IMG/VR virus record: IMGVR_UViG_2526164604_000026
Coordinates: 1 to 19,040 of that record
DNA from: a virus
Taxonomy: Duplodnaviria; Heunggongvirae; Uroviricota; Caudoviricetes
DNA length: 19,040 nt
Strand: one strand, 5' to 3'
Every line of letters begins with the position of its first letter. Position 1 is the first letter of the stretch. Made by a program: the position numbers. Shown piece after piece: positions 3,001-6,000 of the stretch.

Positions 3001-6000
3001 TAACGGGAACTAGGAATTTCCCGTCGGACCATATAAGTTTAAGTTCCTGTCTTGGTGATGTTCTGGCTTTTCCGTTTTGATTCTTGATTTTTCAGATAGT
3101 TAGCTACCTTCATTTCCATTGCGGCAATGTAGGCACGAACGTCATGATCAACCCAACTAGGCTCCGTAGCATTTCCAGATAAGAGGAAAGCCACAATTGC
3201 TCTTTTTTCATCAGAGGCGGCTTGATAAAGGCTGTTTATGTCTAAAAGTTCACTTTTTGTATCTGAAGTGGATGGGGTTGGTATGGGGTATTCGTTAAGC
3301 CCCCAATGCTCTGGACCAACCACATCAGAAAAGAAACGCCATAGTTCTGGAAGTTTGTCTTTACTTATCGAACCTTTCTTAATCCAGTCATGGATTGATG
3401 GTGGTTGGACTTTGAAATGACGTGCGATTTCCGCCTTTGATTTGACGGCTCCTGATGCAATTTTTTTGTTAATGGCCTGCTCTATCGCTCGGCCTAAGTC
3501 TTTACCACTAAGCATTGCTTAATAGTCTCCTATGCGCATCGCATTAGGCAATACCTACTCTCGAAGCGTTAGGCATAGCCTATTGACAATTGCATTAGGC
3601 TAAGCCTAATATTATTGTGTGTTTTTTGGAGTTCATTCGATGAAAAAAGATAACTATTCATTCAAACGAGCTTGTGCTGTTGTCGGTGGGCAATCAGCAA
3701 TGGCTAGGCTTTTAGGTGTATCTCCTCCAAGCGTAAATCAATGGATCAAAGGTGTACGTCAGTTGCCTGCTGAGAGATGTCCTGCGATTGAACGAGCAAC
3801 AAAAGGTGGTGTCCTGTGTGAAGAACTTCGTCCTGATGTTGATTGGACATACTTACGACGCTCGTCATGTTATTCGCAGAATATGTCGATGAAGCAACCA
3901 AATGACGAAAACGATCATACCCGAAGCATCAAGAGGCAAATGATTCATGAAAATCAAACATGAGCACATCCGCATGGCGATGAATGCCTGGGCATATCCT
4001 GATGGTGAGAAAGTTCCTGCAGCTGAAATAGCCCGGACTTATTTCGAACTGGGGATGACGTTCCCGGAACTGTACGACGACAGCCATCCGGAAGCCCTGG
4101 CTCGTAATACCCAGAAAATTTTCCGTTGGCTGGATAAAGACACCCCTGATGCTGTTGAAAAAATGCAGGCTCTGTTACCGGCGATCGAAAAGGCAATGCC
4201 GCCTCTGCTGGTGGCCCGTATGCGCAGTCACAGCTCTGAATATTACCGTGAGATCGTCGAACGGAGGGATCGGCTGGTGAAAGATGTGGATGATTTTGTC
4301 GCAGCGGCGATCGCCTGGGGCACCCTGACTAACAGTGGGGGTCAGCCTGGTAATGCTGTTGTCGTGCATTGACCAACAATATTCATGCCGGATTTCTTCC
4401 GGATGTTCGAGGGTAAAGTTCGGTATCAGATGAGGTGAGTATGGCTAATGCCTGGCTCAGATTGTGGCATGACATGCCAAATGATCCCAAATGGCGAACC
4501 ATTGCCAGGGTCTCAGGACAGCCAATCGCAACAGTGATGGCGGTGTATATCCACCTTCTGGTGAGTGCGTCACGAAATGTCACGAAATGTCACGGCGAGT
4601 CACTACGTGGTCACATTGATGTCACGACGGAAGATTTAGCAAGTGCGCTTGATGTGACGGAAGACGTGATTGATTCAATTTTGCATGCAATGCAGGGGCG
4701 AGTTCTGGATGGCGATCTTATTTCCGGATGGGAAAAACGCCAGGTGATGAAGGAGGATAACGGTAATGTTTCGCAAACCGCAAAATCCCCGGCAGAGCGC
4801 AAGAGAGCGCAGCGGGAGCGGGAAAGACTGCGGGAGCAGAACACTGATTGTCACGATGAGTCACGACGCGTCACGCATATGTCACGACAAGTCACGACAG
4901 ATACAGATACAGATAAAGAATTAAACCCCACACATAACGCGCGCATGCGCGAGAGTGCTCCAGCCAGTGAGTCGAATGGCGCGCCGTTGCAGACAGCAGA
5001 ACCTGAATACCCGGATGGCCTGAGCGAACCGATCGGGAAATTTCCGATGACTGGTGTCTGGCGGCCGTCGCTGGATTTTCGACAGCGGGCTGCATTGTGG
5101 GGTATAGCTCTGCCTGAGCCTGAGTTTACACCTGCTGAGCTTGCCGCATTCCGGGATTACTGGATGGCGGAGGGGAAGGTTTTCACGCAGGTTCAGTGGG
5201 AGCAGAAATTTGCCCGTCACGTGCAGCACGTCAGGGCACAGGTAAAACCAGTCAGCAAGGGGGTAAGCCATGCAGCACCAGGTGGCACCGCATCACGGGC
5301 AGTTCAGGAAATTCGGGCAGCACGTGAACAGTGGGAACGTGAAAACGGATTTATCAGCAACGGAAACGGCCTGGAAGCTGTGGGAACTTATGGGGGAGGT
5401 GTATTCGAACCGCTGGACCCAGAAGAACGGGGCTGCGCCGTCGAAGCTCTGGATTGCTCAGATTGGCGCGATGACTGAACAGCAAATCCGGCAGGTCTGC
5501 CGTCAGTGCATGGACCGCTGCCGGGCGGGTGAAACGTGGCCTCCGGACCTGGCTGAGTTTGTGGCGTTGATTTCGGAGAGCGGGGCAAATCCATTTGGCC
5601 TGACGGTGGATGCCGTGATGGAGGAGTACCGTCGCTGGAGGAATGAATCCTGGCGGTACGACGGGAGTGATAAATACCCGTGGCCACAGCCGGTGCTGTA
5701 CCACATTTGCCTCGAGATGCGTGACAGAGGGATTGAGCGGCAGATGACGGAAGGTGAGTTAAAACGACTTGCAGAACGGCAACTGACGAAATGGGCAAAG
5801 CAAGTTGGTAACGGGATGAGTATTCCCCCGATCCGGAGACAACTCGCATCGCCGAAGTGCCCGCAAGGGCCAACGCCAATTGAATTACTGAAACAGGAAT
5901 ACGAGCGCCGGAAGGCGGCTGGTTTTGTTTGAATCTGAGAAACGATTTTGTCGGAGGAAATTTTAATGGAAACCGTATCTGACGCACTGAAAGCACTGAA

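Follow-up and report, generated by a model that had tools for sequence, protein, structure and literature searches.

The viral sequence IMGVR_UViG_2526164604_000026, of which positions 1 to 19,040 were analyzed (19,040 nucleotides, referred to below as the window), raises the question of whether a pair of short repeat arrays located inside its replication initiator gene constitutes the origin from which this DNA is replicated. The window is a lambdoid prophage of Escherichia coli O157:H7 with an early region of the Rac type, and the segment from 4380 to 4960, which contains the repeats, is 100% identical to many E. coli O157:H7 chromosomes. A first-pass annotation made from the sequence of the window had proposed that phased copies of the word GTCAC(G), followed by an AT-rich stretch, form an origin lying within the initiator gene, with a P-like loader as its partner. 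The comparisons described below support that proposal, and they suggest that the segment 4569-4925 is in all likelihood a replication origin, composed of iterons and an unwinding element and located inside the gene of the protein that would recognize it.

Phased repeats and an A-rich tract in the initiator gene

The elements of the candidate origin are as follows; both arrays and the A-rich tract lie inside the coding sequence 4441-5478.

4441..5478, + strand: initiator ('replisome organizer') gene, 345 amino acids (aa); PHROG 'replication initiation protein'
4569..4626, + strand: iteron array 1, six GTCAC(G) copies at 10-11 bp spacing, consensus about TGTCACGA
4654..4658, - strand: inverted iteron, single copy, GTGAC on the + strand and CCGTCACATC on the - strand, about 33 bp after array 1
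4850..4896, + strand: iteron array 2, five GTCACG copies at 10-11 bp spacing
4897..4925, + strand: A-rich purine tract, candidate DNA unwinding element, (ACAGAT)x3, AAAGAATTAAA; recombination junction with the Rac-type ydaU
4940..4951, no strand assigned: perfect GC-rich palindrome of 12 bp, CGCGCATGCGCG, just right of the A-rich tract; also present in Rac-SA53 ydaU

The GTCAC copies of array 1 start on the + strand at 4569, 4579, 4589, 4599, 4610 and 4621, with successive spacings of 10, 10, 10, 11 and 11 bp, and four of the six contain GTCACG in full. The GTCACG copies of array 2 start at 4850, 4860, 4870, 4881 and 4891, with spacings of 10, 10, 11 and 10 bp. The six and five repeats that the first-pass annotation had counted were thus recovered at exact coordinates, and the distance between the arrays, which it had put at about 230 bp, was measured as 223 bp. 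It had overlooked the single inverted copy at 4654-4658, which is kept in most relatives, usually at +192 of the gene.

The phasing far exceeds the level represented by shuffled sequence. When the window was shuffled 300 times (mononucleotide shuffles), no 5-mer formed a run phased at 10 or 11 bp that was longer than 3: the maximum was 2 in 281 shuffles and 3 in 19. The real window contains runs of 6 and 5, and every other 5-mer in it reaches at most 3. The word GTCACG occurs 20 times in the window compared to an expected count of 8.5 +/- 2.9, and nine of the 20 occurrences fall in the two arrays. Tandem Repeats Finder calls both arrays and, in addition, an (ACAGAT)x3.8 array at 4897-4919. No further phased GTCAC run that could represent a second repeat cluster, of the kind exemplified by oriR of phage SPP1 or crr of satellite phage P4, was found in the 19-kb window.

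The AT-rich stretch that had been placed after array 2 is present and directly abuts the last iteron, but it is short and modest: it occupies 29 bp, and its GC content in 40-nt windows is 0.35-0.40 compared to about 0.50 locally, with a top strand that is strongly A-rich. To its right lies the palindrome, a placement also known from lambda, whose AT-rich tract has a palindrome on the same side; the DNA hairpin that it could form at 4940-4951 is not significantly more stable than those of shuffled sequences (z = -1.7). The 5-nt direct repeats with their one inverted copy cannot form much RNA structure.

Conservation of the arrays and selection on the repeat DNA

A protein search with the N-terminal 165 aa of the initiator returned more than 1000 protein clusters, and across the homologues conservation is high over the first 150 residues, whereas the C-terminal halves fall into several unrelated kinds. 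In 27 further loci with repeats of the GTCAC type, array 1, with 3-6 copies, begins at +128 (or +138) of the gene, and array 2, with 3-5 copies, at about +388; within array 1 the usual positions are +128, +138, +148 and +159 from the start codon. The hosts are gamma- and beta-proteobacteria that include Escherichia, Shigella, Serratia, Rahnella, Superficieibacter, Entomomonas, Pseudomonas, Aeromonas, Gilvimarinus, Bordetella, Chromobacterium, Aquitalea, Acidovorax, Castellaniella and Pseudothauera, and the loci span 34-69% GC. In the complete 40-kb genome of one related phage, Evi, no phased GTCAC run was found outside the two arrays of this gene.

A comparison of repeat number across relatives, which the first-pass annotation had recommended, gives 4 + 3 copies as the ancestral state, from which the 6 + 5 copies of the window are derived by in-frame insertions of 21 nt, a length that corresponds to two repeats or seven codons, and to two turns of the helix. 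The patterns 6+5, 4+5 and 6+4 were seen in a set of 80 close viral contigs.

The annotation had also stated that its proposal would fail if related prophages kept the protein sequence but not the nucleotide sequence of the repeats. The repeats are kept at the nucleotide level, and more strictly than the protein requires, as a codon test on 24 codon-aligned genes of less than 90% nucleotide identity demonstrates. In the 13 residue-conserved columns of the repeat cores, the normalized codon entropy is 0.075 and the top codon accounts for 97% of the sequences; in the 61 other conserved columns, the corresponding values are 0.83 and 52% (Mann-Whitney p = 1e-8). Conserved columns outside the repeats use 2-6 synonymous codons, with four each at V32, V41, V88 and T20, in contrast to the repeat positions listed here with the codon used and its count.

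V47: GTC, 24/24
T48: ACG, 24/24
G57: GGT, 24/24
H58: CAC, 23/23
V61: GTC, 24/24
S44: TCA, 23/24
V72 (inverted copy): GTG, 21/21 of the sequences with Val there, in contrast to GTC in the direct copies
Ser in array 2: TCA, 23/23
Val in array 2: GTC, 23/23
His in array 2: CAC, 21/21

Since the repeats recur every 10-11 nt and not in steps of 3, the word falls into each of the three frames and encodes VT, G/C-H or S-R. Because the synonymous codons are frozen at the repeat cores, and because one word is read in three frames, selection acts on the repeat DNA. This applies equally to the tract after array 2, which takes the form (A/T)AGATAAAGATAAAGATAAAG or (GATAAA/GATACA)n in relatives, with GAT and AAA as almost invariant codons (13/13 to 22/22 at several columns). 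The homologous tracts have a GC content of 18-42%, even in loci of 60-69% GC, and in three loci (L012, L013 and L032) the A-rich motif is kept in another reading frame.

Iteron classes and inheritance as a cassette

Homologues of the initiator carry iterons of three classes, GTCACG, GTAACG(C) and CGAACGC, located at the same two positions and with the same 10-bp phasing. The GTAACG(C) class is represented in Pantoea, Enterobacter, Marinobacter, Sphingomonas and an acidobacterial metagenome-assembled genome (MAG), and the CGAACGC class in Janthinobacterium, Massilia, Collimonas and others; in the homologues of these two classes, which are more distant (about 45-55% identity), a purine-rich tract also follows the second array. 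Variations on the repeat pattern were observed in individual loci. In Erwinia phyllosphaerae (L016), at +159..+180 and +411..+450, copies of GTCACG overlap at 5-bp spacing (GTCACGTCACGTCACG) in addition to being phased at 10 bp. In the Entomomonas / Ventosimonas MAG loci L034, L036 and L044, the (GATAAA)n tract has grown to as many as 8 copies. In L047 and L054 (a Serratia MAG and Pantoea), the N-domain is fused to a different C-terminal part, and CTACG/CGTAG repeats are found at +326..+371 of the gene instead of iterons phased at 10 bp.

The similarity between the window and ydaU of Rac-SA53 begins at 4899, right after the last iteron, and upstream of this junction the Rac-SA53 gene encodes a DUF1376 domain and contains no GTCAC. 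Because the similarity begins at this point, with DUF1376 and no GTCAC upstream of it, the N-domain and both arrays are seen to be inherited as one cassette, joined to the rest at the A-rich tract, and they move together in this way through many genera. It is the N-domain that the arrays accompany, not the immunity genes; relatives differ in the types of their repressors and cro genes. Wherever the gene downstream of the initiator can be identified, it encodes a helicase or a loader of one of four kinds: lambda-P-like, DnaC/IstB-like, Toprim-DnaB primase-helicase, or DnaB.

The N-module with its iterons occurs in 644 of 5426 complete E. coli genomes, with up to four matching places per genome and three in many O157:H7 strains. 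A plasmid search gave 11 matches, mostly to large plasmids or mislabelled chromosomes, together with two circular phage-like episomes of 51 kb from Pseudomonas. The P. aeruginosa entry CP137943.1 (L137), a 50.9-kb circular 'plasmid' that resembles a lambdoid phage, carries the N-module followed by a Toprim-DnaB primase-helicase, and its typing in PLSDB is non-mobilizable only. These matches weakly favour autonomous replication.

Two observations concern the C-terminal side of the module. Phage Evi (L004/L140) has no helicase-loader gene after the initiator. Many members with otherwise different C-terminal halves share a C-terminal tail of the form ...PD..IPPGFRG, seen in Evi, in L018, L025 and L030, and in the proteins P0030, P0042 and P0047, which may serve to dock a host protein.

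The initiator protein

The protein encoded by 4441..5478, which belongs to a family named 'phage replisome organizer' by NCBI, consists of a winged-helix/helical N-domain (aa 1-100), a basic helix (117-137), a disordered linker (142-191) and a DnaT-like domain (201-267). In the AlphaFold model, the N-terminal 100 aa form a confident helical domain with a helix-turn-helix and a hairpin at its end, the helices spanning residues 63-70 and 74-84 and the hairpin residues 85-95. Array 1 encodes the loop of aa 43-62, between the helix at 29-45 and the winged helix, and array 2 encodes aa 137-152 at the start of the disordered linker, or aa 137-165 when the A-rich tract is included.

The annotation had described the protein as having a DUF1376/DnaT-like build rather than a lambda O fold. 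The DnaT-like part of this description is borne out: the single-stranded DNA (ssDNA)-binding domain at aa 201-267 (nt 5041-5241) matches Pfam DnaT (PF17948, E=3e-17), and in the AlphaFold (AF2) model it superposes on residues 84-153 of E. coli DnaT bound to ssDNA (4ou6) with 58% identity, TM 0.9 and a root-mean-square deviation of 1.1 A. The DUF1376 part does not hold, since Pfam gives no such match and an hhalign comparison with the N-terminus of Rac-SA53 YdaU has a probability of 0.5% (a weak test, with a single-sequence target). The view that the protein lacks a lambda O fold agrees with Pfam, which sees the DnaT domain only, shows no match to the lambda O family and detects nothing in aa 1-140 at E <= 10.

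The protein was also compared with other families. It is not a full-length DnaT, since the equivalog model (NCBIfam NF002770) scores 93 bits against a cut-off of 201, with only model positions 80-156 matched; an hhalign comparison of the 73-sequence family alignment with G38P of SPP1 detected no homology (probability 0.05%); and the position of a C-terminal Phg_2220_C domain (PF09524) is taken in the window protein by the DnaT domain. The model TIGR01714 ('phage replisome organizer N-terminal region') is matched along its whole length, though weakly (17.2 bits compared to a cut-off of 49.8, E=0.0045). A profile search against PDB sequences returned DnaT alone (E = 0.68), and a Foldseek search of the AF2 model against the PDB gave a strong match for the DnaT domain only; the winged-helix matches of the N-domain, one of which is the centromere binder TubR, are weak and non-significant.

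Neighbouring genes

The order of the early region is integrase and excisionase, racR, the ydaS/cro-like gene, the ydaT-like gene, the initiator and the lambda-P-like gene. The features flanking the initiator are as follows.

3039-3515, - strand: racR, divergent from the ydaS-like gene
3583..3612, + strand: candidate pR-like sigma-70 promoter (consensus scan, 10/12 hexamer positions), between racR and the ydaS-like gene
3640-3963, + strand: ydaS/cro-like gene
3947-4372: ydaT-like gene
5270..5932, + strand: lambda-P-like helicase loader gene; Pfam Phage_lambda_P PF06992, E=1.6e-16; PHROG 'P-like helicase loader'

The promoter-like site at 3583..3612, a consensus match only, is located upstream of the ydaS(cro)-ydaT-initiator-P operon, and transcription from it would run through the origin. 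The start of the P-like gene is annotated in RefSeq at 5471 (153 aa), downstream of the point at which the Pfam match begins (aa 55-187 of the 220-aa open reading frame from 5270, with the match starting at nt ~5432). Because the match begins before the RefSeq start, the true start of the gene is probably upstream of 5471, with the gene overlapping the 3' end of the initiator out of frame. Comparably long overlaps of initiator and loader were seen in L010, L011, L014 and L020.

In the late region, a 645-aa open reading frame at 13481-15418 contains DUF1737, a SASA sialate O-acetylesterase domain and DUF6645, and resembles the NanS-p esterases of prophages of enterohaemorrhagic E. coli (EHEC). 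The otherwise matching locus of strain TR01 (L001) differs in its late region, where the annotation shows DUF6645 only as a truncated pseudogene.

Relation to known origins

The lambda origin lies in gene O and consists of initiator-binding repeats followed by an AT-rich tract that is unwound (PMC7466680). Like the candidate origin of the window, it is located inside the initiator gene, in the stretch for the linker that connects a DNA-binding N-domain to a C-domain engaged with the loader; a gene for a P-type loader follows immediately downstream, and transcription comes from a pR-type promoter, for which the window has a candidate. Lambda and its Stx-phage variants, however, have a single array of 4-6 iterons of about 19 bp each, with six in the Stx variants (PMC7466680), whereas the window has units of 5-8 bp placed one helical turn apart and distributed over two arrays. 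The window also differs in that array 1 falls inside the coding region of the DNA-binding domain and that the C-domain is DnaT-like.

A second parallel is found in Bacillus phage SPP1 and the phage_rep_org_N group of phages from Gram-positive bacteria. The SPP1 origin oriL is located in gene 38, which encodes the replisome organizer G38P, and here direct repeats bound by the organizer and an adjacent DNA unwinding element lie in the organizer's own gene (PMC5737612, PMC6316719). When gene 38 was read in the present work, its repeats were found to be phased at about 11 bp (GAAACGACA / GAAAAAGACAC) and to be followed by an AT-rich tract encoding a low-complexity linker, which is the design seen in array 2 and the A-rich tract of the window. 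One homologue, P0080, combines the N-domain of the present family with the C-terminal Pfam domain of G38P (PF09524). Unlike the window, gene 38 has no visible array in the part that encodes the N-domain, and SPP1 has a second binding region, oriR, at a distance of 13 kb, to which no further phased GTCAC run corresponds in phage Evi or in the window.

The YdaU-YdaV module of Rac resembles the window in gene order, with racR, ydaS and ydaT followed by initiator and loader. From 4899 to 5932, the window and the ydaU-ydaV region of Rac-SA53 share about 88% nucleotide identity, a stretch that comprises the A-rich tract, the palindrome, the DnaT-like domain and the P-like gene, and that takes in the C-terminal two thirds of the initiator. 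The N-module of Rac-SA53 YdaU, in contrast, is unrelated to that of the window (DUF1376, E=6e-26), and in place of GTCAC the gene contains four copies of TGTTCAA(ACA), which are candidate iterons of a Rac/oriJ-type module. These copies lie at 2162-2473 of the Rac-SA53 locus (L136) and include, shortly before the A-rich tract, a perfect inverted pair (2441-2450 / 2464-2473). An active origin, oriJ, is reported for Rac (PMC3945230; reference list of PMC11014345). A definition of the oriJ sequence was not found in the literature searched.

The two-array layout also calls to mind the bipartite ori/crr of satellite phage P4, in which two separated clusters of one short repeat serve one initiator. 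The clusters of P4 are kilobases apart and its initiator is a primase-helicase, and the likeness to the window is one of resemblance only.

Proposed mechanism and alternative explanations

We infer that initiation at this site proceeds through binding, bridging, melting and helicase loading. Upon derepression, the pR-like promoter would transcribe ydaS-ydaT-initiator-P, and the winged-helix N-domain of the initiator would bind the GTCACG iterons, where, because these are one helical turn apart, the bound molecules would be lined up on one face of the DNA. Two clusters of initiator would form, on 6 (+1 inverted) and 5 sites about 280 bp apart, and they may be bridged into one nucleoprotein complex. 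The resulting strain would be relieved in the (ACAGAT)n tract that abuts the last iteron, which would melt, and the DnaT-like ssDNA-binding C-domain would act with the lambda-P-like protein to deliver host DnaB to the opened DNA.

A more speculative suggestion, which we consider improbable, is that the loop encoded by array 1 (aa 43-62, '...ASRNVT..RGH.DVT') is itself part of the surface that reads the iterons. If this were true, the same nucleotides would write both the site and its reader, and a change of iteron class would alter both. Within aa 1-100, at a uniformity of 80%, the GTCACG and CGAACGC classes can be told apart only by columns in this loop (aa 46, 48 and 58), and the recognition-helix region is not class-specific. 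Beyond aa 100, the classes also differ by an indel of 9 residues at aa 106-117, which precedes the basic helix. The correlation between loop and class is forced by the coding overlap, however, and is hence no evidence of function, and either the indel segment or a protein indifferent to class explains the data equally well.

Several considerations weigh against the identification of 4569-4925 as an origin. The iteron columns used in the codon test were picked after the motif had been seen. The A-rich tract is only about 29 bp long and moderately AT-rich (GC 0.35-0.40). The N-domain is without a close solved structure, its winged-helix fold matches are weak, and its binding to DNA is thus a prediction. 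The N-domain also does not appear to be accompanied by internal iterons in every case: some distant homologues (L047, L048/49 and L054) have no recognizable repeats, and in L034, L036 and L044 (GC 33-34%) the iterons are degenerate, with 1-2 CGAACGC-like words; these loci may be decaying origins or a further class. The prophage is possibly defective, since a near-identical strain has partial genes annotated in this neighbourhood, and the origin may be intact but unused. Finally, the literature searched contains no description of an origin for this family and no binding, unwinding or replication experiment; the paper on Stx-phage regulatory regions (PMC8951638) makes no mention of the terms searched for.

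These considerations must be set beside the explanations that compete with an origin or refine it. The chief one is a refinement, compatible with the identification of the segment as an origin, that assigns separate roles to the two arrays: array 2 and the A-rich tract would be the origin proper, and array 1 with the inverted copy would be an auxiliary site for the same initiator. Such a site might enhance initiation, control copy number (by 'handcuffing', for instance) or act as an autoregulatory roadblock in the initiator's own coding sequence. Such a division is possible and we hold it tentatively, as the less likely arrangement. It fits the facts that the A-rich tract is abutted by array 2 only, that the inverted copy accompanies array 1 alone, that array 1 lies 223 bp upstream, which is far for direct unwinding, and that the two lambda iterons nearest the AT-rich region suffice in vitro (PMC7466680). 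On the other hand, the arrays are equally conserved and equally codon-frozen, and they change class together in every subfamily; this joint change indicates that the same protein reads both arrays, and it does not separate their roles.

A different process altogether, in which the arrays are a partition or packaging site or a transcription-factor operator that lies in the initiator gene by chance, appears very unlikely. Although phased short direct repeats also occur in partition centromeres, and TubR is among the weak fold matches of the N-domain, the arrays co-segregate with the N-domain despite differing immunity regions and helicase partners, they are missing from the otherwise near-identical Rac-type gene that has the same C-terminal part, they are always followed by the A-rich tract and the replication genes, and the Evi genome is without any other phased run. 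Least credible of all is the idea that the repeats are a functionless by-product of a repeated peptide motif or of neutral slippage of the DNA. The shifts of copy number in 21-nt steps do resemble slippage, and the encoded loop and disordered linker tolerate insertions, but a period of 10-11 nt read in three frames yields different peptides (VT, GH/CH and SR), the layout is kept from 34% to 69% GC, and the freezing of synonymous sites (p = 1e-8) means that the codon test effectively refutes this idea.

Implications for origin specificity

The principle that iterons and an unwinding element can reside in the initiator gene is a textbook one, and the gain is a new and well-delimited system. What is new here is the use of short iterons phased at one helical turn, the bipartite layout, the presence of at least three specificity classes on one scaffold, and the interchangeability of the helicase-delivery modules. 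If confirmed, the identification would extend to a very large set of replication modules of temperate phages, for which both the origin and the domain that binds it would then be defined. The family would also constitute a natural experiment in origin specificity, in which one protein scaffold is combined with three iteron words and four kinds of helicase-delivery partner. In EHEC, co-resident prophages may share an iteron class, in which case one initiator could fire the origins of others, defective ones included. This iteron system is widespread and uncharacterized, and it is unusually well suited to studies of origin specificity.

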